Source: Pseudodesulfovibrio mercurii
Lineage (GTDB): Bacteria > Desulfobacterota > Desulfovibrionia > Desulfovibrionales > Desulfovibrionaceae
DNA length: 32,000 bases
Assembly (NCBI RefSeq): GCF_000189295.2
Contig: NC_016803.1
Coordinates: forward strand, 180,001-212,000
Direction: 5' to 3'
Every line of letters begins with the position of its first letter. Position 1 is the stretch's first letter. Of this stretch, positions 4,519 to 31,333 are shown piece after piece. The notes beneath the pieces were generated by a model. The model had not been told where the DNA came from and made no database searches. It saw only the letters and a list, made by a program, of their open reading frames with translations. Made by a program: the position numbers and the translations under genes.

Positions 4519-4542
4519 TCCGGCGGCCTTTTGGCCGCCGGA
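4519..4542 (+). terminator. GC-rich stem-loop after the 228-aa gene (possible terminator or processing site, no U-tract)
   Basis: tccggcggcc-tttt-ggccgccgga: a 10-bp perfect stem with a 4-nt loop, followed by tcgcgcc rather than a T-run. Confidence 0.3.
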
Positions 4543-4614
4543 TCGCGCCCCCCGATCCACAAGGGTTTACTCCTGGCCGAAATGATTATATTTTCTCCGA
4601 ATGAGGAAGCGTGC

Positions 4615-6098
4615 ATGAATCTCCAGAATTATTACGACACCGTCATGGAGCTGACCCACGGCATCGTGGTCTCGCTCGATCTGGACGGGGGGATCATCCA
4701 CGGGAACTCCGAGCTGGAACACCTCTCCGGCTATCATCTTCAGGAACTGGCGGGCCGCGACTGGTTCGAGGTCTTCATCCCCAGGGACGAGCGGGACATG
4801 GCCCGCCGGGCCCTGCTGGAGGGCGTCCACGGCCGGGGCGTGACCGCCTTTGCCGGGCGCATCCGGGCCAAGGACGGGGACACTGTCTACGTCAACTGGA
4901 ACCTCAAGCCGCTGACCGACTCCAACGGCGAGGTGGTCAGCCTGCTGTGCGTGGGCCAGGACGTGACCGACCTGGTCCTGCGCGAAAAGGGGCTGCTGCG
5001 CGAGCGCTTCACCCTGCTCGAGCGCAACAAGGAACTGAACTGCCTCTATTCCCTGAGCCAGCTCATGGGCGAGATCCATCGGTCCATGGACGACCTCCTG
5101 AACCAGGTGGTGGAGCTCCTTCCGGCGGCCTTCCAGAACCCGGAGATGACCTACGCCCGGCTCCGCCTCGGGCACAAGATTTTCCAGACCCCCGGCTTCG
5201 AGGACAGCGACCACATGCTCAAGTCCGACATCGTCATCAACAACGAGAAGCGGGGGTCCCTCAGCGTGGCCGTGCGCGACGACGCGGCCCGGCCCGGCTT
5301 CCTGGAGGACGAGCGCGACCTGTTTACCACCGTGGTCCAGCAGGTGGTCATTCTGGTCTCCAAGCGGGAGACCAGGCTGGCCAAGCAGGAGCTGGAACGC
5401 CAGCTCAGGCAGTCGGACCGGCTGGCCAAGATCGGCCAGTTCTCGGCCGGAGTGGCCCACGAGATCAACGAGCCCCTGGCCAACATCCTCGGGTTCGCCG
5501 AACTGGCCCTCCAGACCCCCGGCCTGCCCGAGCAGGTGACCACGGACCTGAACAACATCGTGGACTCCTCCCTGCACGCCCGGGAGATCATCCGCAAGCT
5601 CATGTTCTTCGGGCGCCAGCTGCCGCCCCAGCCCGCGTTCATCGACTTCAACGAGACCGTGGAGCAGGCCCTGCGCATCACCGAGTCCGGGGCCCGGCGC
5701 GGGGACATCGAGATCGTCCGCGACTTCGACCGCAGCCTGCCGAAGATTCTGGCCGATCCGCAGCACATGAAGCAGGTGGTCGTCAACCTGGTGGTCAACG
5801 CCATCCAGGCCATGACCGAGGGCGGCACCGTGACCATCCGGACCATCAACCACGAGAACGACGCCTACCTCGTGGTGGAGGACACCGGGCCCGGCATGAC
5901 CCCGGACGTTCTGAAGATGATCTTCACCCCGTTTTTCACCACCAAGGACGTGGACCAGGGGTCGGGTCTGGGACTGTCCGTGATCCACGGCATCGTCAAG
6001 GCCCACGGGGGATTCATTCAGGTGGAAAGCTCGCCGGATGCGGGGACCAGGGTGGAGGTCGCCTTGCCCTGCCATCTGCGCGCCCCGGAGGATGAGGC

Positions 6099-6102
<4 letters not shown>
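4615..6102 (+). CDS. PAS-domain sensor histidine kinase (cytoplasmic)
   Basis: ATG 4615 is preceded by GAGGAAG; the ORF-track start at 4531 lacks an RBS. PAS-like N-terminus (GIVVSLDLDGGIIHGNSELEHLSGY...). H-box FSAGVAHEINEPL. N-box VVNLVVNAIQA. G-boxes EDTGPGM and GSGLGLSV. Confidence 0.85.
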
Positions 6103-7445
<1,343 letters not shown>

Positions 7446-9168: not shown

Positions 9169-9184
9169 TGGCATGCTTTCTGCT
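9169..9184 (+). promoter_or_regulatory. Sigma-54 (-24/-12) promoter for the cytochrome-rnf operon
   Basis: TGGCATG-CTTT-CTGCT against the consensus TGGCACG-N4-TTGCW. GG and GC are separated by exactly 10 nt. Correct orientation, about 110 nt upstream of the likely cytochrome start. Confidence 0.65.
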
Positions 9185-9297
9185 CTTTGGCAAATTGATT
9201 GACTAATCAATCTAAACGTGGGAATGAAGCCGGGCGAAAAAAAGACGGGAGCAAATCCCGCGTGTGTAAAACCCTTTTTCGAGTGAGGATTGGCCAG

Positions 9298-9774
9298 TTG
9301 CAGAACAGATATTTCATCATATCAGCCATCGTTGCGCTCCTGTTCGCGGGGGCAGTGGTCGGCTACGCCATACCGATGGAAAAACAGGAAGTCCCGGCTC
9401 GGGTCATCCTGGACAACACCGGTGGCCGGATCGTGTTCGCCCACCAGGCGCACGCCGTGGAGTACGGGGGCGACTGTGTGGACTGCCACCATGACGGCGT
9501 TGAGGGCGAAAGCTACCTGCCGTGCGGGGCGTGCCATCCGGCGGAGTTCGACGAGCAGTTCCGCCTCAATCATCCCAAGGCGTTTTCGGATCAGAAGGCC
9601 TGCCTGCGCTGCCATGACGGCGTGCCCGCCGGCCCCCTGCCCGAAGACCAATGGCCGGACGTCGAGTCCATTCCCACACGGGGCGAGGCCTTCCACTCCC
9701 TGTGCATGGGATGTCACGAGGAAAACGGCGGTCCCTACGGCGACGACGCCTGCTACCAGTGTCACGCGAGGTAA
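9298..9774 (+). CDS. Membrane-anchored multihaem cytochrome c (five CXXCH motifs)
   Basis: Maximal ORF is 9199-9774. The sigma-54 promoter puts the transcription start near 9195. TTG 9298 sits 8 nt after GAGGA (9285-9289), so it is the preferred start; GTG 9283 is an alternative. TM anchor YFIISAIVALLFAGAVVGYAI. Haem motifs CVDCH, CGACH, CLRCH, CMGCH, CYQCH. Confidence 0.75.
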   Translation: MQNRYFIISAIVALLFAGAVVGYAIPMEKQEVPARVILDNTGGRIVFAHQAHAVEYGGDCVDCHHDGVEGESYLPCGACHPAEFDEQFRLNHPKAFSDQKACLRCHDGVPAGPLPEDQWPDVESIPTRGEAFHSLCMGCHEENGGPYGDDACYQCHAR

Positions 9775-9777
9775 TCC

Positions 9778-10923
9778 ATGCTCAAGATACGTTATTCACT
9801 TGATTTGGAGCTGACCAATTCCATCCGCGACATGGCGCTCCCGGAAGAGTTGCACTTTCAGGTGCGCAATCTCGTCGTCAAGACCAAGAAAGGCAGCGTC
9901 CTGACCAAGGGCGAGATCATCGCCGAACATCCCGCCCCGGGCGGCGGGGCCTACCACGCGGCGGTGGGCGGCAAGGTCACGGGCGTCAACTACCACAGCC
10001 TGATCGTGAACTGCACGGGCGGCGATGACGTCGTTCCCCCCGTGGACGTCAATTCCATGGGCAAGGGCGCGGAACTGCTGCGCGTCCTCCAGGGACTCGG
10101 CGTGGGCGTGAGCCAGCTCTCGGGCAAGGCCGAGGTCCTGGTCATCAACGGCCTGAACCCGGAACCGGGCGTGTCCGTGGCCCAGCAACTCCTGCGGGAC
10201 GGCCGCGAGGAACTGGCCGCGGGTCTGGCCCTGGCCCGCAGGCTGCTCTCGCCCAACCGCACGGTCCTGGCCGTGCCCAAGGGCGACGAGGTGACCATCC
10301 CCGGCGCCGAGAGCGTACAGGTCCGGGCCAAGTACCCGTACTCCCTGGACGCCCTGGTGGTCCGGGCCGTGACCGGCCGGGAATTTCCCGAGGACACCCG
10401 GGTCATGAACGTCATGGACCTCTACGACCTGGGCCGGGTGAGCCTGACCGGGCTGCCCATCACCGAGACATTGATGACCATCGCCGGGAACAATTACCGG
10501 GTGCCCATCGGCACGCCCGTGCGGCACATCCTGACTGTCCTCGGCCTGGAGACCCACCCCGGCGACTCCATCGTCCTGGGCGGGCCCTTCCGGGGCGAGG
10601 CCATCTACAGCCTGGACGAGGGGGTCAAGAAGACCGACTACGGCCTGTTCATCACCTCTTCGGACGCCATCCCGGCGGTCCAGGACGCGGCCTGCATCAA
10701 CTGCGGGGAGTGCGTCCTGCAATGCCCGGCCAGGGTCCAGCCGCACCTCATCAGCCGTTGCGCCGAGTACGAACGGTTCGAGGAGGCCGAGCGGTACGGC
10801 CTGAACAGCTGTTTCGAGTGCGGTTTGTGCGCCTTCAACTGCTTCGCCCGACGGCCGCTGCTCCAATACATCCGCTTCGCCAAGGCGCAGCTCAAGGCCA
10901 AGGGGCAGGGGGCCCAGGCCTGA
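9778..10923 (+). CDS. rnfC: Rnf complex subunit C-like protein (short form; two 4Fe-4S motifs retained, nucleotide/FMN motifs apparently degenerate)
   Basis: GAGG lies 7 nt upstream of ATG 9778. Its position as the first of rnfCDGEAB supports the call. C-terminal motifs CINCGECVLQCP and CFECGLCAFNC. INGLNPEPG stands in place of the canonical INGAECEPY. Confidence 0.7.
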   Translation: MLKIRYSLDLELTNSIRDMALPEELHFQVRNLVVKTKKGSVLTKGEIIAEHPAPGGGAYHAAVGGKVTGVNYHSLIVNCTGGDDVVPPVDVNSMGKGAELLRVLQGLGVGVSQLSGKAEVLVINGLNPEPGVSVAQQLLRDGREELAAGLALARRLLSPNRTVLAVPKGDEVTIPGAESVQVRAKYPYSLDALVVRAVTGREFPEDTRVMNVMDLYDLGRVSLTGLPITETLMTIAGNNYRVPIGTPVRHILTVLGLETHPGDSIVLGGPFRGEAIYSLDEGVKKTDYGLFITSSDAIPAVQDAACINCGECVLQCPARVQPHLISRCAEYERFEEAERYGLNSCFECGLCAFNCFARRPLLQYIRFAKAQLKAKGQGAQA

Positions 10924-10963
10924 GCCGGTACGGGGAACAATCACGAAGTTCGACAACACAAGG

Positions 10964-11947
10964 ATGATGAACAATATGAATCCTCCCATTCTCAAAGCAA
11001 TGTCCGACGTATCGCTCAGGCTGACGGTTTCGCCGCCGCCGCACTGGCGTAGCGGGCGGACCATCCAGGGCATGATGCAGGCGCACCTGCTGGCCCTGCT
11101 TCCGGCCGTGGTCACGGCGGTGATCATGTACGGCTACCGCGCCATCTCGGTGATCGGCCTGGCCGGGACCGCGGCGGTGCTCACCGAAGTGGTCTGTCTG
11201 CGCCTCCAGAAGCGGGACGTGGACGTGGACAATTATTCGGCCCTTTACGCGGGCGTGCTCTTCGCCTTCCTGCTCCCGGTCACCGCGCCGTGGTGGCTGG
11301 TGGCCATCGGTGGCATCCTGACCATCGCCCTGGGGCGCACCGTTTTCGGCGGCTTCGGCTGCAACCCGGTCTGCGCCCCGCTGGTGGCCTGGGCCGTGTG
11401 TCGTTTCTCCTGGCCCGCGGCCATGGACATTGACCTCAACCTGGCGAACTACGTGGCCAACAGCCCAGTGGATCAGCTCATGCATTTCGGAGTGGGCAGC
11501 CTCCTCCAGTTCGACTACATGGACCTGTTCACCGGGCGGCAGCTCGGCGGCCTGGGTTCGTCACAGGTCATGGCCCTGGCCGCGGGCGGCATTTTCCTGC
11601 TCGCCGCCCGCTGGATCCGCCTGTTCATCCCGGTGGGCTTCCTCATCGGCGTGGCGGGCACGGCGACCGTGTACTGGGCCATCGACCCCACGGTCTACGC
11701 CGATCCCATGTTCCACCTGCTGGCGGGCAGCACCGTGTTCGGGGCCTTCTTCCTGGCGCCTGACGCGGCCTCCAGCCCGGTCGGCAAGATTCCCCAGACC
11801 GTGTTCGGCCTCATCGCCGGAGCCATGGTCGTGATCATCCGCGTGTACGGGGTGTACCCCGACGGCGTGCCCTTCGCCATCATGGTGGCGAACCTGCTCA
11901 GCCCGCTGTTGGACCGCCTCCGTCCCAAGTTCTTCGGAGTCAGATAA
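10964..11947 (+). CDS. rnfD: Rnf complex subunit D (NqrB-like polytopic membrane protein)
   Basis: N-terminus LRLTVSPPPHWRSGRTIQGMM is typical of RnfD/NqrB. Multiple TM helices. Synteny. Start is ambiguous among ATG 10964, 10967 and 10976. Confidence 0.85.
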   Translation: MMNNMNPPILKAMSDVSLRLTVSPPPHWRSGRTIQGMMQAHLLALLPAVVTAVIMYGYRAISVIGLAGTAAVLTEVVCLRLQKRDVDVDNYSALYAGVLFAFLLPVTAPWWLVAIGGILTIALGRTVFGGFGCNPVCAPLVAWAVCRFSWPAAMDIDLNLANYVANSPVDQLMHFGVGSLLQFDYMDLFTGRQLGGLGSSQVMALAAGGIFLLAARWIRLFIPVGFLIGVAGTATVYWAIDPTVYADPMFHLLAGSTVFGAFFLAPDAASSPVGKIPQTVFGLIAGAMVVIIRVYGVYPDGVPFAIMVANLLSPLLDRLRPKFFGVR

Positions 11948-11949
11948 TC

Positions 11950-12519
11950 ATGCGTGAAATCATCAATATGATCGTGGTTCTGTCGCTCATCTGCGCCGCC
12001 TCCGGGACCCTGCTGGTCAACCTGAAGCGAGCCACCAAGGACAAGATCGAACAACAGGTGCTTGTCAACGTCCAGGGCCCGGCCCTGATGACCGTGCTCG
12101 CCGGGTGCGACAACGACCCCATCGCCGAGCGCAAGATCGTGGACGGGGTGACCGTGTTCCCGGCCCGCCGCGCGGGCAAGCTCGTGGGCGTGGCCTTCGA
12201 GACCTTCGCCCCCGGCTACTCCGGGGACGTCGGGGTCATGGTCGGCTTCGACGTGGACGCGGACCGGCTCATCGGCATCGGCGTCACCACCCAGACCGAG
12301 ACCCCGGGCGTGGGCACGCGCATCATGAAGCCCGCCTTCCTCAAGCAGTTCAAGGGCCACAAGCTCGACTCCATGGCCCTGAGCTCCAAGGACGGCGACA
12401 TCGACGCCGTGGCCGGGGCGACCTATTCGTCCACCGGCGCGGTGGACGCGGTGCGCAAGGCCCTCGACCTGTACAAGGGCATCAAGCCGCAAATCGCCGA
12501 CCTCTGGCCGGCGTCCTAA
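11950..12519 (+). CDS. rnfG: Rnf complex subunit G (FMN-binding domain)
   Basis: Starts 2 nt after the rnfD stop. N-terminal TM. FMN_bind-type motif DAVAGATYSSTGAV near the C-terminus. Confidence 0.85.
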   Translation: MREIINMIVVLSLICAASGTLLVNLKRATKDKIEQQVLVNVQGPALMTVLAGCDNDPIAERKIVDGVTVFPARRAGKLVGVAFETFAPGYSGDVGVMVGFDVDADRLIGIGVTTQTETPGVGTRIMKPAFLKQFKGHKLDSMALSSKDGDIDAVAGATYSSTGAVDAVRKALDLYKGIKPQIADLWPAS

Positions 12520-12532
12520 GGAGAGCGATACA

Positions 12533-13225
12533 ATGAGTGCTTCCCTCAAGAAGGAATTCCTCAAGGGGTTGTGGGACGAGCTGCCGCCGTTCCGCGTGGT
12601 CCTCGGGCTGTGCCCGACCCTGGCCGTGACCTCCACGGCGGAGAACGGGTTCGGCATGGGCATGGCCGTGCTCTTCGTCCTGACCCTGTCCAACGCCATC
12701 ATCTCGGGCCTGCGCAAGGTCATTCCGTCCAAGGTGCGCATCGCCTGCTTCATCGTCATCGCGGCCTCCCTGGTGGTGGCCGTGGAACTGCTCATGCAGG
12801 CCTACACCTACTCCCTGTATCAGCGGCTCGGCATCTTCGTGCCGCTCATCGTGGTCAACTGCATCATCCTGGGCCGGGCCGAGGCCTTCGCCTCCAAGAA
12901 TCCCGTCCTGCCGTCCATCGCCGACGGCCTGGGCATGGGGCTCGGCTTCACCATGTCCCTGACCTTCCTGGGCGCGCTGCGCGAAGGGTTCGGCAACGGC
13001 ACCGTCTTCGGCGTGCCGGTGGCCTGGGACTCCTTCCAGCCCGCCCACTTCATGGTCATGGCCCCCGGCGCCTTCGTCTGCCTGGGACTGATCCTGGCGA
13101 GCATGAACGCGCTCAACCGTTACCTGAGCCGCCGCAAGGGCGAGCCGGAAACCGAGCCGCAGAACACGGCCTGCGCGTCCTGCGCGGGCTGCAACCTGTG
13201 CATCACGGCCAAGAGGGAGAGGTAG
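12533..13225 (+). CDS. rnfE: Rnf complex subunit E (NqrD-like)
   Basis: AAGGAGAG RBS. Signature VVLGLCPTLAVTS and LIVVNCIILGRAEAFA. Six hydrophobic helices. Confidence 0.85.
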   Translation: MSASLKKEFLKGLWDELPPFRVVLGLCPTLAVTSTAENGFGMGMAVLFVLTLSNAIISGLRKVIPSKVRIACFIVIAASLVVAVELLMQAYTYSLYQRLGIFVPLIVVNCIILGRAEAFASKNPVLPSIADGLGMGLGFTMSLTFLGALREGFGNGTVFGVPVAWDSFQPAHFMVMAPGAFVCLGLILASMNALNRYLSRRKGEPETEPQNTACASCAGCNLCITAKRER

Positions 13226-13228
13226 ATC

Positions 13229-13804
13229 ATGGATTACTTCATGCTGTTCATCTCGGCCATCTTCATCAACAACATCGTCCTGGTCCAGTATCTGGGCACC
13301 TGCCCGTTCATGGGCACGTCCAAGTCCACGGACGTGGCCATCGGCATGGGCGCGGCGGTCATCTTCGTCCTGCTCATGGCCACGGCCTTCACCTGGCCCC
13401 TCCAGCATTACGTGCTGACCCCCTATGGCATCGGCTACCTCCAGACCATCGTGTTCATCCTGGTCATCGCCTCCCTGGTCCAGTTCGTGGAACTGTTCCT
13501 GAAGAAGGTCATCCCGCCCCTGCATGCCTCGCTCGGTCTGTTCCTGCCCCTGATCACCACCAACTGCGCGGTCATGGGCGTGGCCATCATGGTCCAGCGC
13601 AGCAACTATTCGTTCGTCAAGGCGATGGCCTTCTCCCTTGCCTCTGGAGTCGGCTTCCTCATCGCCCTGGTCATCATCTCCGCCATCCGGGAGCGGCTCG
13701 ACGTCTCCCCGGTGCCGGTGGTCTTCCGCGGTATTCCGGTGGCGCTCATCACGGCGGGCATCATGTCGCTGGTCTTCCTCGCCTTCCAGGGCATGGCCGC
13801 GTAA
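13229..13804 (+). CDS. rnfA: Rnf complex subunit A (NqrE-like)
   Basis: Starts 3 nt after the rnfE stop. Signature NNIVLVQYLGTCPFMGTS and PLITTNCAVMG. Six hydrophobic helices. Confidence 0.85.
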   Translation: MDYFMLFISAIFINNIVLVQYLGTCPFMGTSKSTDVAIGMGAAVIFVLLMATAFTWPLQHYVLTPYGIGYLQTIVFILVIASLVQFVELFLKKVIPPLHASLGLFLPLITTNCAVMGVAIMVQRSNYSFVKAMAFSLASGVGFLIALVIISAIRERLDVSPVPVVFRGIPVALITAGIMSLVFLAFQGMAA

Positions 13805-13828
13805 CCGTACAAGCACAAGGACGAGATT

Positions 13829-15943
13829 ATGGTAGCCTCATCCATATTGGTTCTGTTTCTTCTGGGGTTGACGGCGGCCGCCATTCTGGCCGTGGCCTCC
13901 CGGATTCTCTACGTCAAGGAGGACCCCCGCGTGGCCAGGGTCGAAGCCTGCCTGCCCGGCGCCAACTGCGGCGGCTGCGGCTATCCGGGCTGCTCGGCGG
14001 CGGCCGCGGCCGTGGTCAGCGGCGACGCTCCGCCCGAGGTCTGCGTGGTGGCCAACCTGGAGACCTCGGCGCGCATCGCCGGGATCATGGGGGCCGAGGT
14101 GCAGTTCAAGGAGCCCAAGGTGGCCACGAACATATGCAGCGGCGGCTCCCGGGCCAACCTGCTGTTCGACTACAAGGGCGTGGAGGACTGCCGCGCCGAG
14201 GCGCTGCTCTACGGCGGCGAGAAGTCCTGCGGCATCGGCTGCATCGGGCTCGGCACCTGCGTCAAGGTCTGTTCGTTCAACGCCATTCGGTTGAGCGACG
14301 CGGGACTGCCCGTGGTGGACTGGAACGCCTGCCGGTCCTGCGGCAAGTGCGCCGAGGCGTGCCCCACCGGGGCCATCCGCATCTCCAGCGTGACCAGCGT
14401 GCTCCTGCACCTCAACCAGACCGACGACTGCCTGGCCCCGTGCATGCAGAAGTGCCCGGCCCAGATCAACGTGCGCCGCTACGTCCAGCAGCTCAAGCAG
14501 GGCGACATGCGCGGCGCGCTTCTGACCATCAAGGAGCACAACCCGTTGCCGCTCATCGTGGGCCGCGTCTGTCCGGCCCCGTGCGAAAACATCTGCCGGC
14601 GCAAGATCGTGGACGAGGGCGTGGCCATCCACACCCTGCAACGGTACGTGGCGGACTGGGAGATGCATTCGGGGACCCGCGTGGTCCTGCACTGCAATCC
14701 GCCCAGCGGCCACAAGGTGGCCATCATCGGCGGCGGTCCCGCCGGGCTGTCCTGCGCCTACTTCCTGCGCCGCGTGGGGCATGAGCCGGTCATCTTCGAG
14801 AAGCGTCAGCACATCGGCGGCATGATGCGCGGCGTCATCCCGGAATACCGGCTGCCCAAGAAGGTCGTGGACTGGGAGGTCCAGACCATCCTTAACCTCG
14901 GCGTGGAGACCCGCACCGGCGTGGCCTTCGGCCGGGACGTGACCCTGGCCGACCTTGAGAAGGAGGGGTTCGAGGCGGTCTTCATCGCCACGGGCGCCTG
15001 GAAGGTGCCCCCGCTCGGCATCGAGAACGACAACGCCGAGGGCGTGCTGGACGCCATCTCCTTCCTCTACGGCGTGGGCCGGGAATATACCGACCTGCGC
15101 GGCAAGACCGTGGTCGTGGTGGGCGGCAGCAACACCGCCATGGACGTGGTCCGCAGCGCCATCCGCCTCGGCGCCACGGCCATCGCCCTGGTGCCGAGCA
15201 TCCAGCGCAAGATGTCCGCCAACAAGGAGGAGATCCAGCGCGCCGTGGAGATCGGAGCCGACCTTCGCTACATGACCGCGCCCATCGGCCTGGTGGCCGA
15301 GGACGGGGCCGTGTGCGGCGTGACCTATTGCGACCTGGCCTACGACGACCCGGAAAAGGCCAAGGGCGGCCCCAACCCCGTCGCCGGGACCAAGTCCTTC
15401 GTGGCTGCCGACATGGTTATCGCGGCCACCGACCGTCTGGTGGACGACAGCCTGCTGCGCGACGCCGACGGCAAGCCTCTCTTCAAGATTGATAAGAAGA
15501 CCGGTGGGATCAGTGCAAACCCGACCACGTTGCAAACCGACATCCCCAACGTGTTCGTGGGCGGAGAAGTCCACACCGGCCGCAACATCCTCATACAGGC
15601 GGTGTCCGACGGACGCCGTGCCGCACGCTCCATCCACTTCTACGTCACCCAGGGAACGGTGCCGGAACCGGACAATCAGCAGGTCCAGGTCATCCCGGAA
15701 TCGATTCTCAAGGACATGCACGTAACATACTCCATCCCCAGGGTCCAAGAACCTCTGGTCAGCGTGGAGGAGCGGAAGCACACCTTCAAGGAGGAAGTGG
15801 CCGGTTCCATCACCTACGAAACGGCTCGGAAGGAGGCGAGCCGCTGCCTGCGATGCGGACTGACCTGTTACGACGCCGACGCCGGGGCCGAATACACCCG
15901 GGACGCCGACGTCAAGGTCATTGCCGAAGCGGGCAGGGAGTAA
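13829..15943 (+). CDS. rnfB: RnfB fused to a GltD-like (glutamate synthase small-subunit family) NAD(P)H/FAD iron-sulfur oxidoreductase, 704 aa
   Basis: AAGGA RBS. Residues 1 to about 190 are RnfB: TM anchor, CGGCGYPGCSAAA cluster motif, and ferredoxin motifs CIGLGTCVKVC and CRSCGKCAEACP. Residues from about 200 onward are GltD-like: CMQKCP...GRVCPAPCENIC, dinucleotide fold VAIIGGGPAGLSCAYFL...FEKRQHIGGMM...IPEYRLP, and a second Rossmann fold VVVVGGSNTAMDVVRSAIRLGA. The frame is uninterrupted. Confidence 0.8.
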   Translation: MVASSILVLFLLGLTAAAILAVASRILYVKEDPRVARVEACLPGANCGGCGYPGCSAAAAAVVSGDAPPEVCVVANLETSARIAGIMGAEVQFKEPKVATNICSGGSRANLLFDYKGVEDCRAEALLYGGEKSCGIGCIGLGTCVKVCSFNAIRLSDAGLPVVDWNACRSCGKCAEACPTGAIRISSVTSVLLHLNQTDDCLAPCMQKCPAQINVRRYVQQLKQGDMRGALLTIKEHNPLPLIVGRVCPAPCENICRRKIVDEGVAIHTLQRYVADWEMHSGTRVVLHCNPPSGHKVAIIGGGPAGLSCAYFLRRVGHEPVIFEKRQHIGGMMRGVIPEYRLPKKVVDWEVQTILNLGVETRTGVAFGRDVTLADLEKEGFEAVFIATGAWKVPPLGIENDNAEGVLDAISFLYGVGREYTDLRGKTVVVVGGSNTAMDVVRSAIRLGATAIALVPSIQRKMSANKEEIQRAVEIGADLRYMTAPIGLVAEDGAVCGVTYCDLAYDDPEKAKGGPNPVAGTKSFVAADMVIAATDRLVDDSLLRDADGKPLFKIDKKTGGISANPTTLQTDIPNVFVGGEVHTGRNILIQAVSDGRRAARSIHFYVTQGTVPEPDNQQVQVIPESILKDMHVTYSIPRVQEPLVSVEERKHTFKEEVAGSITYETARKEASRCLRCGLTCYDADAGAEYTRDADVKVIAEAGRE

Positions 15944-16039
15944 GCAAGACCATCCGAATGATCTCCCGATCGGGCCCGCATGCGCCTCACCCTTCGAGGA
16001 TAGCGCCCCCTGTCGCCCGCTGGACAGGCGCATGAAGCC

Positions 16040-16082
16040 GCAGCCCCGGACATCATACCGTGTCCGGGGCTGCTATTTTTTG
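16040..16082 (+). terminator. Rho-independent terminator of the rnf operon (shared convergent site with speA)
   Basis: gcagccccggaca / tgtccggggctgc: a 13-bp perfect stem with an 8-nt loop, followed by tattttttg. Confidence 0.85.
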
Positions 16083-16102
16083 GGGTCGGGGAGGCGGCGC
16101 GC

Positions 16103-18016
16103 CTACCGTTCGAGGTAGGTGTAGCCGTGCAGGCCGTTGCGGTAGGCCTGAAGGATTTCCCGCCGCTGGGCCGGGGTGATCAGCCCCTTGCGCACGCTGG
16201 CCTCGGCGGTCTCGCGGAAGCGGGTCAGCAACGCCTTGGTGTCGTATTCCACGTAGGACAGGACGTCCTCAACGGTGTCGCCCTCGAGTTCGCCGACAAA
16301 GTCGTACTTGCCGTTTTCGAGAATCCGGACCGTGACCACGTTGGTGTCGCCGAACAGGTTGTGCAGGTCGCCCAGGGTCTCCTGGTACGCGCCCACCAGG
16401 AAGACGCCGAGGTAGTACTCCTCCAGCGGCTTGAGGGCGTGCAGGGCCATGGTCCGGTTGACCCCCGCGCCCTCGATGAAGCGGTCGATCTTGCCGTCGC
16501 AGTCGCAGGTGATGTCGGCCAGGGACCCCTCGCGGGCGGGCTCCTCGTCCAGCCGGTGCACGGGCATGACCGGGAAGAGCTGATGGATGGCCCAGGCATC
16601 GGGCAGGGACTGGAACACGCTGAAATTGCAGTAGTAGATGTCCGACAGGGTGCGGGCCAGGCCCTCCAGCTCCAGGGGCAGGCTGGGCAGGTTCCGGGTC
16701 AGGGCCGCAATGGTCCGCACGGTCAGCCAGAAGACGTTTTCGCCCAGGGCGCGCTCGCGGAAGGAGATGATCCCCTGGTTGAAGGCCTGGCGGACCTCGT
16801 CCCGGTAGTAGAGGGCGTCGTTGAAGCTCTCCTGGACGTTGTCGCGGGTCAGGGCAAGCATGGTCTCGTGCAGGTGCCGGATGTGGATGTTGGTGTCCTC
16901 GGGCAGGGCTTCGGGCAGGGGCTCGGGCTCGAACCGCGCGGCATCGACCACGTTCAGGAGGAGCACGGAGTAGTAGGCCACCAGGGCCCGGCCGGATTCG
17001 GTGATGATGGTCGGGTGGTCCACTCCCTGCTCGTCGAGCACGGTCATGACCCCCTCGATGACGTCGGCGCAGTACTCGTGGACCGAGTAGTTGCGGCTGC
17101 TGGACAGGCTGGTCCGGGTGCCGTCGTAGTCCACGGCCAGGCCGCCGCCCAGGTCCAGGTAGCGCATGCCCGCGCCCTCGGCCGTCAGCCCCGCGTAGAT
17201 GCGGCTGGCCTCGGCCACGCCCGCGCGGATCTCGCGGATGTTCGGAATCTGCGAGCCCAGGTGGTAGTGGAGCAGTTGCAGGCAGTCGAGCATGTTCGCC
17301 TCGCCCAGGCGGTCGATGACCTCGATGATCTGGGTGGCGTTGAGGCCGAAGATGGAGCGGTCGCCGCCGGACTCCGCCCACTGGCCCGTGGCCTGGGACG
17401 AGAGTTTGGCGCGCACGCCGAGTATGGGTTTGACGCCCAGGGCCTTGGAGCGCTCGATGATCAGCGGCAGTTCGTTCGGCATCTCCACGACCAGCACGCA
17501 CTGGAAGCCGAGCTGGACGGCGTGCAGGGCCAGGTCCACGAATTCCTCGTCCTTGTAGCCGTTGCACACGAGCACGGCCTCGGGGTCGTTGTGCATGCCC
17601 AGGGCGGCGATGAGTTCGGCCTTGCTCCCGGCCTCGAGCCCGTGGTGGTACCTGCGGCCGTGGCGGGTGACGGCCTCGACCACCTGTTGCTGCTGGTTGA
17701 CCTTGATGGGGTACGCGCCGAGATAGGACCCCCGGTAGGCGAGCTTTTTCATGGCCTGGAGGAAGCTCTCGTTGAGCAGGGTGATCTGGGTGTCCAGGAG
17801 GTTCTCGATGCGCAGCAGCACCGGCATGTCCAGGCCGCGCGCCTGGATGCCCGCGATGATCTCGGGGATGGACACCGCCTCGGAGAAGTCGTCGGGCCGG
17901 GCGGTCACCTGCAAATCCCCGTTTTCGGAGACGCCGAAAAAGCCCGCGCCCCATTCCCGGACGCGATAGAGTCTTTCGGACCGTTCAACGGTCCATTTTT
18001 CCTGTTCCTGGGTCAT
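16103..18016 (-). CDS. speA: Biosynthetic arginine decarboxylase
   Basis: 637 aa. N-terminus WTVERSERLYRVREWGAGFFGVSENGDLQV and the overall length match SpeA. PLP-dependent Orn/DAP/Arg decarboxylase fold-III features: YPIKVNQQ lysine site, DLGGGLAVDY. GAGGGAGG RBS upstream of the ATG at 18016. Confidence 0.85.
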   Translation of the reverse strand: MTQEQEKWTVERSERLYRVREWGAGFFGVSENGDLQVTARPDDFSEAVSIPEIIAGIQARGLDMPVLLRIENLLDTQITLLNESFLQAMKKLAYRGSYLGAYPIKVNQQQQVVEAVTRHGRRYHHGLEAGSKAELIAALGMHNDPEAVLVCNGYKDEEFVDLALHAVQLGFQCVLVVEMPNELPLIIERSKALGVKPILGVRAKLSSQATGQWAESGGDRSIFGLNATQIIEVIDRLGEANMLDCLQLLHYHLGSQIPNIREIRAGVAEASRIYAGLTAEGAGMRYLDLGGGLAVDYDGTRTSLSSSRNYSVHEYCADVIEGVMTVLDEQGVDHPTIITESGRALVAYYSVLLLNVVDAARFEPEPLPEALPEDTNIHIRHLHETMLALTRDNVQESFNDALYYRDEVRQAFNQGIISFRERALGENVFWLTVRTIAALTRNLPSLPLELEGLARTLSDIYYCNFSVFQSLPDAWAIHQLFPVMPVHRLDEEPAREGSLADITCDCDGKIDRFIEGAGVNRTMALHALKPLEEYYLGVFLVGAYQETLGDLHNLFGDTNVVTVRILENGKYDFVGELEGDTVEDVLSYVEYDTKALLTRFRETAEASVRKGLITPAQRREILQAYRNGLHGYTYLER

Positions 18017-23995: not shown

Positions 23996-24271
23996 ATGCA
24001 ACAATGTGAAATGATCGTCAGCAAACTGGTGGACCAGGTCCGCGAGGACCAGCGTCCGGTCATGCGTCGACGCATTGAGGAGGCCGTGATCGAGCAGGCC
24101 GGGGCCGAGGGTCCCGACAGCCCGACCGCGCATCGCTTTCTCAAGGATCTGGACATCTTCGTGAACATGCGCGGGCCCGAGTTCATCTACTCGCGCGGCA
24201 TCGCCGAAAGCCTGCGCGTGGGCGAGGACATCTTCGAACTGGCCTACGTGATCAAGAAGGCCATGCAGTAA
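23996..24271 (+). CDS. Hypothetical soluble protein, 91 aa
   Basis: GGAG lies 7 nt upstream of ATG 23996. High GC3. Last ORF before a strong terminator. No recognisable family. Confidence 0.5.
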   Translation: MQQCEMIVSKLVDQVREDQRPVMRRRIEEAVIEQAGAEGPDSPTAHRFLKDLDIFVNMRGPEFIYSRGIAESLRVGEDIFELAYVIKKAMQ

Positions 24272-24343
24272 CCCCGGTCCTCAACCGGACCGGTCCCCTT
24301 CCGGACGCCCCTCCGACCCCAGGGGGCGCACCGGCGTTTACCA

Positions 24344-24384
24344 GGCGGGATGGATGCGGAACGCATCCATCCCGCCTCCTTTTT
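24344..24384 (+). terminator. Rho-independent terminator of the transporter operon
   Basis: ggcgggatggatgcg-gaa-cgcatccatcccgcc: a 15-bp perfect stem followed by tccttttt. Confidence 0.85.
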
Positions 24385-24612
24385 GCCGAGCTCCATCAGG
24401 CATCGCGTCTTTCCGCCCCCACGATTCGCGTCGGGCGGCAAACCACCTGCGGTCCTTTTCGCAATCTGTCTGGAGCCTTGCGGTGTTGGCCGTGAATACA
24501 GGTGCGTCAACGGCGGGAGCGTCTCCGTGTTGAATGTGCTGTTTATCATTGTCGCCACTTCTGCATGCCGGTAATTTGGTGTAGATGCCAAATAATCCGG
24601 AAGGTGGGTACC

Positions 24613-25140
24613 ATGATTTGTTTTTCCGACGGAGATGGCTGCTGGATACGAACGGGGCGTTTTCATGCGGGGTACGGACGCAACGCGCGAATGCGCATTC
24701 GGACGTTGTTGCCCGTGCTGGCCGCCTGGGTGCCGTTGATCTTCCCGTCCGAGGCGTTGGCGATCCAGACACATGGCGGGACTGAAGGCCTGTATGCGCA
24801 TCAGTTCGGTCACGTGTTGTTTTTCGTGGCGATGATCCTTTTGTATTTCCGCTTGCGGGGTCAAGCCGAATTCATGTCCCGGGGATGGCGCTATGTGACC
24901 ATATCCTGTCTGCTTTTCGCCGGCTGGAATGTGGTGGCGTTTACGGGTCACTGCCTGGAGGAGATGCTGTCCGTTCCCGTCTTTGCAGGCGGTTCGACCT
25001 GCTGGGAACGTGCCTTGTCCGATGCCACGGGGTGGAAGGGGCTTGTCCTCTATGTCTGCAAATTCGATCACCTGTTGGCGGTTCCCGCCATGCTCTACTT
25101 TTTGTTGGGGCTGAGGGCTTTTGCCAGGGAGCGCCAATGA
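24613..25140 (+). CDS. Small membrane protein (signal/anchor plus 3-4 TM), translationally coupled to the downstream kinase
   Basis: AAGGTGG lies 5 nt upstream of ATG 24613. ATG 24691 is an alternative start that would give MRIRTLLPVLAAWVPLIFPSEALA as a signal peptide. Hydrophobic helices HVLFFVAMILLYF, YVTISCLLFAGWNVVAF, LLAVPAMLYFLLGL. The stop overlaps the next ATG (ATGA at 25137). Confidence 0.55.
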   Translation: MICFSDGDGCWIRTGRFHAGYGRNARMRIRTLLPVLAAWVPLIFPSEALAIQTHGGTEGLYAHQFGHVLFFVAMILLYFRLRGQAEFMSRGWRYVTISCLLFAGWNVVAFTGHCLEEMLSVPVFAGGSTCWERALSDATGWKGLVLYVCKFDHLLAVPAMLYFLLGLRAFARERQ

Positions 25141-26252
25141 ATCAGTATTTACCCGAATTTCCTGTTGTCCTGGTCGATTTCCTGGGATCGTCCTCGATGA
25201 TCCTGCTGTCGTTTCTCGCCATCGGCTATGCATACAGGTTGTTGCGCGAAGAACCGAGGCAGTTGTTGTGGTCGTATCTCCTGATGTTCACGCTGGCGCT
25301 GGCGGCCTTTTCCGTCGGGCGGGGTGTCGGACATATCGTGCGCAATGTCCTGGTCAATACCGGACACCGGGAATTGTGGCTGTCCATCAGTCCATACAGC
25401 GGAGCGCTCAATACCATCACGTTCGTCATCATAGCAGCGATCACCTTTTACTATCATTTTGTGGAAAAGGCGTTCTTGCTGTTGAGACAGGCCAACTCCA
25501 AACTCGTTGGGGCGTTTGCCGAGATACGGCGAAACCGGGATCGGATCATTTTGCTGGAACGCTACGCCGTATGCGACAGGATGGCGGCGAAACTGGCTCA
25601 TGAAACGCGGAATCCGATTTTCACCATCGCCAATTTCGCCAAGTTGTTGCTTCGTAAACTCGAAAACGACGAGGCCTCGGCTGCGCATCTCAGGATCATC
25701 GTCGAGGAATCGCAAAAGCTCGAAGGCCTTATCGATGGCATCATGAAGGTGAGGCATGATCTGCCGCAACTCATGAAACGGGTTTCCGGCAGAGAGGTCC
25801 TTTCCGAATTGGAAGGAATCAGCATAAAAAAGGCGGAGGCCTCGGGGGTTGGGGTACGCGTGGCCCGACTGGAGGAGGAATTCTGGCTGTTCCTCGACAT
25901 CCGGAGCCTGTTGAGCGGCCTGACCGAACTCATCGTGAATGCGATCGAAGCCTCTTCCGAAGGGGATACGATCGACATTTCCGTCCTCCGCGAGGACAAT
26001 ATGGCCGTCTTTCGTGTTTCGGACAGGGGGAAAGGCATCCCTCAGAAGTCGCTGCCCAGGATATTCGAGCCTGGTTTCAGCACCAAACAGTTTTCCGCCG
26101 GCTTGGGGCTGGCCTATGCCAAGCAGATTCTGGAGGCGAATCATGGTGTGGTCAAGATCGAGTCCGTGCCGGGCGAGGGGACTCTGGCCATCGCCGCGTT
26201 TCCTTTGGACACGGACGAGGCGGAACATGCCTATGGCGCCCAGGAATCATGA
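25137..26252 (+). CDS. Membrane histidine kinase (about 4 TM, HisKA, HATPase_c) with no adjacent response regulator
   Basis: H-box AAKLAHETRNPIFTI. N-box ELIVNAIEA. G-boxes SDRGKGI and SAGLGLAYA. N-terminal hydrophobic helices. Visibly lower GC than the upstream genes. Confidence 0.8.
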   Translation: MNQYLPEFPVVLVDFLGSSSMILLSFLAIGYAYRLLREEPRQLLWSYLLMFTLALAAFSVGRGVGHIVRNVLVNTGHRELWLSISPYSGALNTITFVIIAAITFYYHFVEKAFLLLRQANSKLVGAFAEIRRNRDRIILLERYAVCDRMAAKLAHETRNPIFTIANFAKLLLRKLENDEASAAHLRIIVEESQKLEGLIDGIMKVRHDLPQLMKRVSGREVLSELEGISIKKAEASGVGVRVARLEEEFWLFLDIRSLLSGLTELIVNAIEASSEGDTIDISVLREDNMAVFRVSDRGKGIPQKSLPRIFEPGFSTKQFSAGLGLAYAKQILEANHGVVKIESVPGEGTLAIAAFPLDTDEAEHAYGAQES

Positions 26253-26323
26253 GAGGCGGGCGGCCGGGGAGAGTCGGCGTTACGGCCTCTCCGCATTCGG
26301 GGCCTGTTCCGGTGTGCCTGAAT

Positions 26324-26366
26324 GCAAAAAGGGTTTACGGAGCATCTCCGTAAACCCTTGTCTTTT
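26324..26366. terminator. Bidirectional rho-independent terminator between convergent genes
   Basis: aagggtttacgga / tccgtaaaccctt: a 13-bp perfect stem with a 5-nt loop. An A5 run lies upstream and gtctttt downstream. Confidence 0.8.
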
Positions 26367-26460
26367 CCTGTCGCGATGGGAGGATTTGTCCGCGTCCCGA
26401 ACACGGCGGCGTGCAGGTGAGCCGCAGACCGTGGAAGCTGGGGATCCAGCGGGGGATACC

Positions 26461-27663: not shown

Positions 27664-27746
27664 GGTGTCGCCTACAGGGGGGTAGCGTGTGCGGTTTGAA
27701 TTGTCTGCAAGGGCGCTCTTGTTGCCGATACGATGTCCACGCCGGA

Positions 27747-28001
27747 CTATTCCTTTTCAAGCACCTTGAAAAGATTCACCAGGGAAATGGTCATGTTCTC
27801 TTCGAGATTTCCGAAATTGAACGTATAGCCGTCCTGTTCCAGCTCCATCGCGAAGTGCAGCAAGGCAATGGAATCGATGATGTTGTCTTCAAAGATGGAG
27901 GACGTGTCGTCGTACACGGCGAGACTCGATATCCCCACGTTCTTGAATTGCTCTTCAAAGTTCTTCCAAAACAAGTTTTTGAATTCATCATACGTCAACA
28001 T
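27747..28001 (-). CDS. Acyl/peptidyl carrier protein (ACP-like), 84 aa
   Basis: Acidic small protein with the phosphopantetheine-attachment context NIIDSIALLHFAMELE (DS-I/L motif at the start of helix II). Confidence 0.7.
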   Translation of the reverse strand: MLTYDEFKNLFWKNFEEQFKNVGISSLAVYDDTSSIFEDNIIDSIALLHFAMELEQDGYTFNFGNLEENMTISLVNLFKVLEKE

Positions 28002-28727: not shown

Positions 28728-28985
28728 TTATGCATTCCTTATCTTTTCGATGGATGCGATGATGCTTTCTATGGAAGACCAATTCGTTGCGGCGTCGTCA
28801 TCCTCATCAATGGTGACGGAAATTTCATACACGTTTTCGATTTCAAAATAGAGATTCATCATGTCGAGTGAATCCATACCCTGGTCCTGAAGTCGTTTCT
28901 GGGAGTCCAGATTATCATAATCGACATCATAAGGATCAACGGTACGGATGATGTCGATGATTGCTTCCCGTGTTATGGAACTCAT
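28728..28985 (-). CDS. Acyl carrier protein, 85 aa
   Basis: Canonical motif DQGMDSLDMMNL. Acidic composition. The start codon overlaps the KAS III stop (TAATG). Confidence 0.8.
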   Translation of the reverse strand: MSSITREAIIDIIRTVDPYDVDYDNLDSQKRLQDQGMDSLDMMNLYFEIENVYEISVTIDEDDDAATNWSSIESIIASIEKIRNA

Positions 28986-30501: not shown

Positions 30502-30525
30502 AAGTTCCCTCCGGGGTTGATCCGG

Positions 30526-31329: not shown

Positions 31330-31333
31330 GGTA

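Follow-up and report, generated by a model that had tools for sequence, protein, structure and literature searches.

In sulfate reducers, the Rnf complex is a pump of central importance for energy conservation, and Desulfovibrio alaskensis requires it for growth on H2, formate, and ethanol (PMC4215793). The described form to which the operon considered here is assigned is the Rnf2, or Tol2-type, complex of Desulfobacteraceae. Like the present operon, this complex has an RnfB of ~700 amino acids with a pyridine-nucleotide oxidoreductase domain, an RnfC that lacks the Pfam signatures for NADH-ubiquinone oxidoreductase/FMN, SLBB, and often the barrel-sandwich, and a cytochrome c gene in its cluster, in the order cytc-rnfCDGEA(B). 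In their passages on Rnf, Doerries et al. 2016 (PMC5109826), citing the genome paper on Desulfobacula toluolica Tol2, and the supplement of a 2025 Sci Adv article (PMC11887813) give the same domain changes in RnfB and RnfC, and they draw the same inference as did the initial annotation of this DNA, which held that nucleotide oxidation had moved from RnfC to a GltD-like domain of RnfB. The pairing of an altered RnfC with an enlarged RnfB (D. toluolica Tol2-type, Rnf2) is already published, as a genome-based hypothesis. Furthermore, according to the parts of these reports that deal with Rnf, subunits of the Tol2-type/Rnf2 complex have been detected by proteomics (PMC5109826, PMC11887813), and Desulfobacteraceae produce Rnf2 constitutively and in abundance (PMC11887813); the corresponding part of the 2025 paper assigns "Rnf1" to Desulfovibrionaceae and mentions a large RnfB only for Dv. 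salexigens (PMC11887813). Model-strain relatives of the short-RnfB operons of Desulfovibrio, Bilophila, and Mailhella are regarded in the literature as ferredoxin:NAD+ oxidoreductases. For Methanosarcina acetivorans Rnf, a cytochrome-linked, NAD-independent model has been put forward, in which RnfG donates electrons to cytochrome c (PMC4023990); for its RnfC, the accounts consulted here name cluster motifs only.

The window, by which we mean the whole 32,000-nucleotide stretch of Pseudodesulfovibrio mercurii DNA that was analyzed, contains an operon whose gene order, from a survey of open reading frames and Pfam matches, is cytc-rnfC-D-G-E-A-B (Table 1). The product of the first gene has five CxxCH motifs (at residues 93, 109, 135, 169, and 185), matches Pfam Cytochrom_CIII (E=4e-12), and has a single hydrophobic helix at its N-terminus; its translation probably begins further downstream than the TTG at 9199. 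A search for a sigma-54 promoter 5' of the operon gave one -24/-12-like site (9169-9184), a pattern that is no commoner than in shuffles. On its own, the window chiefly places the operon in an Rnf type described before, although the host, a member of the Desulfovibrionaceae, and the pentahaem, membrane-anchored cytochrome set it apart from the Rnf2/Tol2-type examples.

Table 1. Features of the cytc-rnf operon, in window coordinates
Feature	Coordinates	Strand	Basis
Pentahaem cytochrome c, membrane-anchored, c3/c7 family; first gene of the operon	9199..9774	+	CxxCH motifs, Pfam
RnfC without FMN/NADH site, 381 aa, ATG start	9778..10923	+	Alignments, Pfam/NCBIfam, AF2 model
Degenerate region of RnfC, GLGVGVSQLSGKAEVLVINGLNPEPGVS, in place of GLGGAxFPTxVKL...NGAECEPYLT	10093..10176	+	Alignment to E. 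coli RsxC and the 9eri, 7zc6, and 8ahx RnfCs
Two intact [4Fe-4S] motifs of RnfC, CINCGECVLQCP and CFECGLCAFNC	10693..10842	+	Cys invariant
RnfD, covalent-FMN threonine replaced (Ser167, nt 11462-11464), pocket residues altered	10964..11947	+	TIGR01946, alignment
RnfG, FMN-attachment threonine T158 (AGAT) retained	11950..12519	+	Pfam FMN_bind
RnfE, both [2Fe-2S]-ligand Cys retained	12533..13225	+	Pfam, alignment
RnfA, both [2Fe-2S]-ligand Cys retained	13229..13804	+	Pfam, alignment
RnfB fusion, 704 aa	13829..15943	+	Pfam FeS, Fer4, Fer4_20, Pyr_redox_2; PDB matches

The initial annotation had described an RnfC with neither a GGAGFP-like loop nor ECEPY, and the alignments and the missed cutoffs of Pfam Complex1_51K and NCBIfam TIGR01945 confirm this description. 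When the protein, whose residues ~104-139 read LQGLGVGVSQLSGKAEVLVINGLNPEPGVSVAQQLL, is aligned by MAFFT with E. coli RsxC and with the RnfCs of solved Rnf structures (A. woodii 9eri_C, C. tetanomorphum 7zc6_C, and A. vinelandii 8ahx_C), nothing in it corresponds to the GLGGAxFP(T)xVKL loop, leaving A. woodii residues 137-152 (VGLGGATFPTHVKLAI) unmatched; at the position of the canonical NGAECEPYLT it has NGLNPEPGVS, with NPEPG in the ECEPY column. The score against Complex1_51K is 25.0 bits, below the gathering score of 31.2, with only profile positions 27-86 of 150 matched, and no SLBB or RnfC_N Pfam match was found in the window RnfC; canonical RnfC controls score 156-171 bits over the full Complex1_51K profile and match RnfC_N and SLBB as well. 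With TIGR01945 the score is 164 bits against a cutoff of 246 (521 bits for a canonical control), and the alignment begins only at profile position 153. Canonical RnfCs invariably have E167, C168, Y171, D175, G239, K242, and the VPxG loop; in the non-canonical proteins these have been substituted or deleted, and the substitutes form no new conserved motif. N211 of the window RnfC, in the column of A. woodii N268, is retained. The initial annotation had allowed that a structure-guided or profile alignment might place intact FMN/NADH-binding residues elsewhere in the protein. This was ruled out, since phmmer against the RnfCs of the PDB, two MAFFT alignments, and the Pfam/NCBIfam profiles match only past the glycine loop; a GGxGFP-like string is absent from the entire RnfC sequence. 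A chance or miscalled reading frame was likewise ruled out by a GC3 of 0.90, a start 4 nt past the cytochrome stop, and orthologues that are 40-89% identical.

The two C-terminal 4Fe-4S motifs, in turn, are intact as first annotated, with all eight cysteines present (CINCGECVLQCP at residues 306-317 and CFECGLCAFNC at 345-355). The AF2 model of RnfC has a pLDDT of 92.6 and, in Foldseek, TM scores of 0.78-0.82 to the RnfCs of solved complexes (9eri_C, 8rbq_C, and 7zc6_C) and of 0.72-0.74 to NqrA; as predicted, this structure shows domains that are degenerate rather than absent. Judged from its sequence, RnfC has kept its fold and both [4Fe-4S] clusters and has lost the NuoF-like glycine loop and the acidic motif that hold FMN/NADH. 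The protein is not NqrA, given its score against the NqrA NCBIfam models (26 bits, cutoff 450), its rnf-type operon, and its two [4Fe-4S] motifs; it also falls outside rnfC_Methano (83 bits, cutoff 650), as does the window RnfB outside rnfB_Methano (166 bits, cutoff 445).

Residues 1-190 of RnfB are the ordinary part of the protein, with a membrane anchor, the FeS domain, and a ferredoxin domain with two [4Fe-4S] clusters, and residues 8-184 match A. woodii RnfB in the PDB with E=2.5e-46. Residues ~192-683 are an NfnB/GltD-like module for FAD, NAD(P)H, and two [4Fe-4S] clusters, which matches 9bov_A of an Nfn-ABC complex (E=5e-99), 9n5u_A, 8oh5_C of the StnABC complex, and the NfnB-type chains 4ylf_B and 5jca_L. 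Across 38 fused RnfBs, 22 cysteines, those of the clusters among them, are conserved along with the dinucleotide motifs GGGPAG (301-306) and GGSNTAMD (432-439), the latter in the form GG(S/G)NTAMD. The RCLxCG Cys motif presumably stands after the flavoprotein part, as in 9bov_A, rather than before it as in the GltD/NfnB layout. RnfB has acquired an entire FAD/NAD(P)H module of the NfnB/GltD type.

The changes extend to RnfD, which still exceeds the TIGR01946 cutoff (223 bits against 207). Within the clade, the column of C. tetanomorphum RnfD T153 is occupied by Y, D, A, S, E, or T, and pocket residues are changed (R130 to W, E185 to A/S, S284 to P, N90 to L); D248, the riboflavin/Na+ site of canonical Rnf, is retained as D/E. 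The alignment of clade RnfDs revealed no alternative conserved Ser/Thr able to take the flavin. In contrast, the FMN threonine column of RnfG is T in 56 and S in 4 of the 60 clade members compared. The covalent-FMN residue of RnfD and its pocket have thus been lost in the clade, while the RnfG threonine and the RnfA/E cysteines are kept; in the window operon, RnfB, too, retains every one of its cofactor ligands. This loss is absent from those parts of PMC5109826 and PMC11887813 in which the Rnf2/Tol2-type complex is described.

To place these features within the clade, 80 loci were compared for cytochrome linkage and RnfB types, and 74 non-canonical RnfCs were taken from the fetched loci. The loop is deleted in 65 of the 74, and the eight cluster cysteines are present in all of them, as they are in all canonical RnfCs; loop loss with Cys retention is a conserved character of the clade, not chance. 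As to whether the degenerate region is conserved wherever RnfB is long, a point raised in the initial annotation, a fused (~700 aa, NfnB/GltD-like) or split GltD-RnfB has a non-canonical RnfC as its partner in every sampled case among loci that had been collected by means of RnfC patterns characteristic of the clade. Homologue searches with RnfB returned only close Desulfovibrionales relatives, and the best 120 matches to RnfC were only from gut Desulfovibrio, D. porci, and Bilophila. In three loci (L065, L054, and L072), RnfB is split and a separate GltD-like gene is present, which supports a functional link between RnfB and the GltD-like module. Desulfobacterales loci with the same architecture as the window (L052, L055, L062, and others) encode RnfCs that are 31-34% and RnfB fusions that are 41-44% identical to those of the window, and in a neighbor-joining tree without support values these RnfCs group with the window RnfC outside the canonical clade.

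However, the view of the initial annotation that the RnfC loss and the RnfB fusion are linked changes does not survive the comparison with relatives that have an ordinary short RnfB, which the annotation itself had named as evidence against it. In 17 loci, from Desulfovibrio, Bilophila, Mailhella, and others, the same loop-deleted RnfC occurs with an RnfB of 277-336 aa that has no GltD domain, and a dependence of the RnfC loss on the fusion is ruled out. Because of these loci, the RnfC loss is seen to correlate not with the fusion but with the multihaem cytochrome c gene, a homologue of which lies upstream of rnfC in every loop-deleted locus whose upstream region is readable. The unsupported tree suggests that the short RnfB of Desulfovibrio reflects a secondary loss of the GltD domain. 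Consequently, what stands of the proposed move of nucleotide oxidation is the lost site in RnfC and the complete module in RnfB, but not the mutual dependence of the two changes.

Given all of these findings, it is fairly probable that cytc-rnfCDGEAB encodes an Rnf2/Tol2-type Rnf of sulfate-reducing Desulfobacterota that connects NAD(P)H/ferredoxin through RnfB to cytochrome c and in which RnfC is not an NAD+ reductase; its most likely function would be that of a ferredoxin/NAD(P)H:cytochrome c ion pump. In this model, electrons would enter or leave the cytoplasm at RnfB, with NAD(P)H reacting at the fused FAD domain and possibly ferredoxin at the ferredoxin domain. They would then cross the membrane through the RnfA/E [2Fe-2S] center to the periplasmic FMN of RnfG, which would exchange them with the cytochrome c and, beyond it, with the network of periplasmic cytochrome c3, hydrogenase, and formate dehydrogenase. 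Flow in either direction would be coupled to ion translocation. RnfC would no longer reduce NAD+ and would serve as an Fe-S subunit or, in the manner of NqrA, have a mainly structural role for which its clusters remain necessary. However, it should be noted that the eight RnfC cysteines and RnfD D248 are strictly conserved, which speaks for continued electron flow through the RnfD-RnfC branch, a feature that the model leaves unexplained. In addition, the cytochrome of the operon may not be the obligatory partner, because in D. alaskensis G20 fitness was affected in rnf mutants but hardly at all in a mutant of the co-transcribed decahaem cytochrome (PMC4215793). A flavin may also be held in RnfC or RnfD by non-covalent or non-canonical binding.

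The conservation of this branch is the starting point of a different hypothesis, somewhat unlikely in our estimate, in which RnfC is an electron output to another cytoplasmic partner. Here, its clusters would take electrons from the RnfD riboflavin and deliver them singly to ferredoxin, flavodoxin, or a DsrC- or Hdr-type protein, or to the FAD domain of the fused RnfB, docked where NAD no longer binds; in the latter case, electrons might even bifurcate at the NfnB-like FAD. This would explain why the eight cysteines are invariant (74/74) despite the loss of the flavin site and why RnfD D248 is kept as D/E, and it agrees with the statement that for RnfC an acceptor or donor different from NAD(H) "has to be identified" (PMC5109826) and with the solved structures that come nearest to the fused domain, which are NfnB-type modules from bifurcating Nfn/Stn complexes. 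However, the covalent-FMN site of RnfD that feeds the riboflavin in canonical Rnf is gone, which leaves no obvious connection to RnfG; no conserved candidate partner gene adjoins the operon within the window; and the clusters of RnfB and RnfC are >30 A apart in the A. woodii structure (PMC11889175).

It is far less probable that RnfC binds flavin and NAD(H) through non-canonical residues and that the complex is an ordinary ferredoxin:NAD+ oxidoreductase, as papers on Desulfovibrio physiology assume. The RnfC fold is retained overall, a weak partial similarity to Complex1_51K persists, N211 is kept, and the genetics of G20 have been interpreted as ferredoxin:NADH activity (PMC4215793), but the entire 16-residue glycine loop is deleted, the other binding residues and the VPxG loop have been replaced or deleted without conserved substitutes, and the curated family cutoffs are missed. 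Least probable is a decaying or purely structural RnfC with no redox role, like the cofactor-less NqrA, for although Foldseek relates the model to NqrA and the RnfC of L052 has a weak Pfam NQRA_2nd match, the gene shows strong purifying selection (its GC3, orthologues conserved across orders, and invariant cluster ligands), the AF2 model is confident, and Rnf2 subunits are found in proteomes, as the sections on Rnf in PMC5109826 and PMC11887813 indicate.

Returning to the model of an NAD(P)H/ferredoxin-linked cytochrome c oxidoreductase, a broader reading is possible, though we hold it tentatively and lean toward doubt. All cytochrome-c-linked Rnf operons of Desulfobacterota, including those of Desulfovibrio, Bilophila, and Mailhella with a short RnfB, would have lost the flavin sites of the output half, namely, the site of covalent FMN in RnfD and the pocket for FMN/NADH in RnfC. 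None would reduce NAD+ at RnfC, and all would be ion-coupled cytochrome c oxidoreductases, linked to ferredoxin where RnfB is short and to NAD(P)H/ferredoxin where it is fused. If so, the conserved RnfC clusters would serve some further partner, and schemes of Desulfovibrio energy conservation in which electrons from Rnf end up in NADH would have to be revised. If the clade does couple NAD(P)H/ferredoxin to periplasmic cytochromes rather than reduce NAD+ at RnfC, models of electron flow and ATP yield for marine and gut sulfate reducers would change, and the clade would fall naturally between Rnf and Na+-NQR as an intermediate.

With canonical Rnf (A. woodii 9ERI, C. tetanomorphum 7ZC6, A. vinelandii 8AHX, and E. 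coli Rsx), the window complex shares six homologous subunits, the RnfA/E cysteines, the RnfG FMN threonine, the N-terminal FeS and ferredoxin domains of RnfB, and the RnfC fold with its two [4Fe-4S] clusters; it differs in lacking the FMN/NADH loop of RnfC and the covalent-FMN threonine of RnfD and in having the NfnB/GltD module on RnfB and the cytochrome c. The C-terminal 500 residues of RnfB have in common with NfnB/GltD and NfnB-like modules (9BOV_A, 9N5U_A (NfnA), and 8OH5_C) the FAD and NAD(P)H motifs and two [4Fe-4S] sites, but whereas those modules work in Nfn/Stn complexes, that of the window is fused to a membrane-anchored RnfB and has no NfnA/StnAB partner. In Methanosarcina acetivorans, the multihaem cytochrome c gene for MmcA is likewise co-transcribed with rnfCDGEAB, and the complex makes no use of NAD(P) (PMC4023990), although that system is archaeal and an RnfB GltD fusion is not described for it (PMC4023990); the likeness is one of function, through cytochrome linkage, and not of family membership. 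Finally, Na+-NQR differs from the window complex in that NqrA has no Fe-S clusters, NqrB retains its covalent FMN, the acceptor is a quinone rather than cytochrome c, and NqrF is unrelated to GltD/NfnB; like the window complex, it has its NADH-oxidizing flavoprotein, NqrF, on the side equivalent to RnfB and a homologue of RnfC, NqrA, that is without flavin.

The RnfC protein of the window has lost both the glycine-rich FMN/NADH loop (GLGGAxFP(T)xVKL) and the ECEPY motif of canonical RnfC and has kept its cluster cysteines. The initial annotation had made this observation from strings that are indeed found at their position, and it is confirmed by alignment and profile scores. In phmmer searches of PDB sequences, the protein matches the RnfC subunits of three Rnf complexes of known structure, 7zc6_C, 9eri_C, and 8ahx_C (E about 1e-27 to 1e-25), in alignments that start only at residue ~117, where 'lvinglnpepgvs' lies opposite 'ivvnaaecepylt'. 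When aligned with E. coli RsxC, these three chains, and the four canonical RnfCs of the fetched loci, it has no residues equivalent to A. woodii RnfC 137-152 (VGLGGATFPTHVKLAI), and further, shorter deletions fall at 214-223, 253-257 (the VPSG loop), and 295-300. Among the columns invariant in all eight canonical sequences, G138, G140, G141, A142, F144, P145, K149, and L150 are deleted; E167, C168, Y171, D175, E207, N209, K210, G239, K242, T271, and M335 are replaced; and the eight cluster Cys and several structural glycines are retained. The window RnfC scores 25.0 bits with Pfam Complex1_51K, against a gathering score of 31.2 and at profile positions 27-86 only, and neither SLBB nor RnfC_N matches it; the controls (three canonical RnfCs and E. 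coli RsxC) score 156-171 bits over positions 1-150 and match RnfC_N and SLBB too. Likewise, NCBIfam TIGR01945 gives 164 bits (cut-off 246) from profile position 153 onward, versus 521 bits for a canonical control. The failure of these curated models is probably why public records name these RnfCs '4Fe-4S dicluster domain-containing protein'. An AlphaFold2 model (62 homologues, mean pLDDT 92.6) superposes with a TM of 0.78-0.82 on RnfC of solved complexes, 0.72-0.74 on NqrA, and about 0.45 on NuoF-type subunits. Judged from this model, the protein is degenerate, not cut down to a ferredoxin, and, with the fold retained, the domains published as 'missing' would be degenerate rather than absent.

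The gene belongs to a single, tightly packed operon at 9199-15943 (+). The nearest genome locus is in Pseudodesulfovibrio karagichevae (RnfC 88% identity, identical gene order), a genome with three paralogous cytc-rnfCDGEAB operons (L001, L015, L042), in each of which RnfC is degenerate and RnfB is a fusion of ~700 aa; the cytochrome is pentahaem in one of them and decahaem in the other two. A -24/-12-like sigma-54-type sequence (TGGCATGCTTTCTGCT) lies at 9169-9184, immediately 5' of the cytochrome gene, and such patterns are no more frequent than in shuffled sequence. The D. alaskensis operon is rnfCDGEABF, whereas that of the window ends at rnfB; no apbE/rnfF flavin-transferase gene is found after rnfB (15943-16103) or anywhere in the window. 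The base composition shifts at ~24000-32000, where G+C drops to 0.57 (from about 0.65) and GC3 to 0.5-0.8 (from ~0.9); this stretch, whose products include a histidine kinase, a FabH-like ketoacyl-ACP synthase III, and an aminoglycoside 3-N-acetyltransferase-family protein, may have been horizontally acquired.

Genes of the rnf operon and its surroundings (window positions)
Gene	Position	Strand	Remarks
histidine kinase	4531-6102		upstream of operon
sigma-54 response regulator/activator	6099-7445		upstream of operon
cytochrome c, multihaem	9199-9774	+	five CxxCH, c3/c7 family, one N-terminal hydrophobic helix
rnfC	9778-10923	+	381 aa
rnfD	10964-11947	+	
rnfG	11950-12519	+	
rnfE	12533-13225	+	
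rnfA	13229-13804	+	
rnfB	13829-15943	+	704 aa
arginine decarboxylase	16103-18016		convergent, downstream of operon

The degenerate RnfC is not peculiar to this genome. Scanning one genome per species, calling ORFs, and assigning subunits by BLASTP yielded 80 rnf loci, a sample with an ascertainment bias, as the patterns used to retrieve loci were taken from the RnfC C-terminus and are characteristic of this clade. In the 74 non-canonical RnfCs, the loop is absent (65) or altered (9, e.g. GMNGVP), and the eight cluster Cys are conserved in all. GLGGA(G/T)FPT and ECEPY occur in only four loci (Clostridia, Christensenellaceae, and a deltaproteobacterial MAG), in all of which RnfB is short and the cytochrome gene is lacking. 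A multihaem cytochrome c gene (4-11 CxxCH) lies directly 5' of rnfC in every loop-deleted locus with a readable upstream region. Two seeming exceptions, L015 and L026, were artefacts of over-extended ORF starts, and decahaem genes are present in both. In the altered-loop intermediates (L051, L057, L067, and L068, and also L047-L050 and L053), the glycine loop is changed, not deleted, as in GMNGVPLHVNL with a ~14-residue insertion, or NGVDAEPNV. These RnfCs adjoin the canonical ones in a rough neighbor-joining (NJ) tree of RnfC without support values, and that of L057 passes the Complex1_51K cut-off (53.8 bits). RnfB is fused in L057, L067, and L068 and was not found at the L051 locus; none of these four loci yielded a cytochrome c gene.

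It was proposed in the initial annotation that the RnfC and RnfB changes are linked, nucleotide oxidation having moved to a module fused to RnfB. Part of this stands: the RnfC site is lost, and every full-length fused RnfB in this biased sample (38/38) is accompanied by a non-canonical RnfC. Mutual dependence does not. Among the loop-deleted loci, RnfB is a ~700-aa fusion in 32, a separate GltD-like gene is present in three (L054, L065, L072), and in 17 RnfB is an ordinary protein of 277-336 aa with FeS and ferredoxin domains only, the rest being cut by contig ends. The 17 (L009, L013, L014, L016, L017, L019, L020, L022, L023, L025, L030, L031, L034, L037, L038, L045, L046) come from Desulfovibrio sensu stricto, Bilophila, Mailhella, and relatives, and their cytochrome is decahaem or hexahaem. 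Their RnfC is as degenerate as that of the window (L013: Complex1_51K 27 bits, TIGR01945 149 bits); consequently, the change in RnfC does not depend on the fusion. With a loop-deleted RnfC and a short RnfB, none of the subunits encoded by these 17 operons shows an NAD(P)H site that can be recognised, although the literature regards Desulfovibrio Rnf as an Fd:NAD+ oxidoreductase. In the rough, unsupported NJ tree of RnfC, the short-RnfB group is nested within fusion-bearing clades; if this topology holds, the short RnfB would represent secondary loss of the fusion. Gene arrangement varies as well: in L065 (13188-15251), RnfB is 173 aa long and the next gene encodes a GltD-like flavoprotein of 432 aa, a separate GltD-like gene lies near the operon in L054 and L072, and in L056, L058, L063, and L074 the fused rnfB lies 5' of the cytochrome gene, not at the operon end.

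Residues 8-184 of the window RnfB match A. woodii RnfB (PDB search, E=2.5e-46), and residues 192-683 match NfnB-like modules (9bov_A of Nfn-ABC, E=5e-99; 9n5u_A; the StnABC chain 8oh5_C), followed by the NfnB-type chains 4ylf_B and 5jca_L, GltD, and dihydropyrimidine dehydrogenase. Conserved throughout the 38 fused RnfBs are 22 Cys, the FAD motif GGGPAG (301-306), a second dinucleotide motif GG(S/G)NTAMD (432-439), and a C-terminal RCLxCGxxC. The first GltD/NfnB cluster motif is apparently split, as in 9bov_A and 8oh5_C, into CLAPCMQKCP at the module start (201-210) and EASRCLRCGLTC after the flavoprotein part (672-680), and both halves are conserved in all 38. Given these motifs and cysteines, a functional FAD/NAD(P)H site in the fused RnfB is plausible.

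A further loss, not raised in the initial annotation, concerns RnfD. According to Vitt et al. 2022 (PMC9588780), the covalent FMN of C. tetanomorphum RnfD is carried by Thr153; Arg130, Glu185, Ser284, Gly237, and Asn90 surround this FMN or line the proposed Na+ route, and the riboflavin/Na+ site includes Asp248 and Asn124. Across 59 loop-deleted loci, the Thr153 column reads Y22/D20/A8/S2/E2/T1; the window has Ser167 (nt 11462-11464, 'ANSPVD') and its nearest relatives A, T, or Y. No other Ser or Thr in this alignment is specifically conserved in the clade. Pocket residues have also changed (Arg130 to W, Glu185 to A/S, Ser284 to P, Asn90 to L), and Asp248 is kept as D/E. The flavinylation Thr of RnfG (T158 in the window) is T in 56/60 and S in 4/60, and RnfA and RnfE each retain their two Cys in nearly every locus. 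Thus, to judge from these residues, the input half (RnfB, RnfA/E, RnfG) has its cofactor ligands intact, and the output half has lost its two flavin sites (RnfD-FMN, RnfC-FMN).

The RnfC/RnfB finding is a correct rediscovery of a hypothesis already published. In the 'Tol2-type' Rnf described by Doerries et al. 2016 (PMC5109826) with reference to the genome paper on D. toluolica Tol2, RnfB is ~700 aa long and contains NAD-binding sites, and the gene cluster includes a cytochrome gene. More recently, a 2025 Sci Adv study of Desulfobacteraceae (PMC11887813) named this constitutively abundant type Rnf2, reported its occurrence in Da. baarsii and Dv. salexigens too, considered that its cytochrome might serve as an additional point of entry or exit, and called the remaining Rnf subunits very similar. 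That study assigned Rnf1 to Desulfovibrionaceae, whereas the window holds an Rnf2-type operon; a Pseudodesulfovibrio member of the Rnf2/Tol2-type is what the window adds. A 2024 Desulfovibrionaceae survey read the fusion as loss of rnfB, with an FAD-dependent oxidoreductase in its place (PMC11434368), and the available text of a 2025 RNF/NQR review (PMC12174285) does not mention Desulfovibrio, cytochrome c, or the Rnf2 type. In the available text of these four papers, three points are not stated: the loop-less RnfC of short-RnfB Desulfovibrio/Bilophila/Mailhella operons, the loss of the RnfD covalent-FMN site throughout the clade, and the retention of the RnfC fold. The significance lies mainly in the biochemistry of a very widespread pump and in the RnfD observation.

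What the sequences establish is a cofactor inventory and an invariable cytochrome linkage. From these, a route can be proposed in which electrons would pass from RnfB through RnfA/E and RnfG-FMN to cytochrome c, or in the reverse direction, coupled to ion movement; in fusion operons, NAD(P)H would enter at RnfB. Alternatively, RnfC may wire electrons to a putative cytoplasmic partner, a reading kept alive by the strict conservation of the RnfC clusters and RnfD D248, for which the cytochrome route does not account. The dhcA mutants of D. alaskensis G20 have almost no phenotype but rnf mutants do (PMC4215793), a result that speaks against an obligatory cytochrome partner. The proposed route to cytochrome c follows a model put forward for M. 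acetivorans, whose cytochrome-linked Rnf is independent of NAD (PMC4023990). In addition, NAD(P)H entry at RnfB would echo Na+-NQR, in which NADH is oxidised by NqrF and the RnfC homologue NqrA has no cofactor (PMC12174285).
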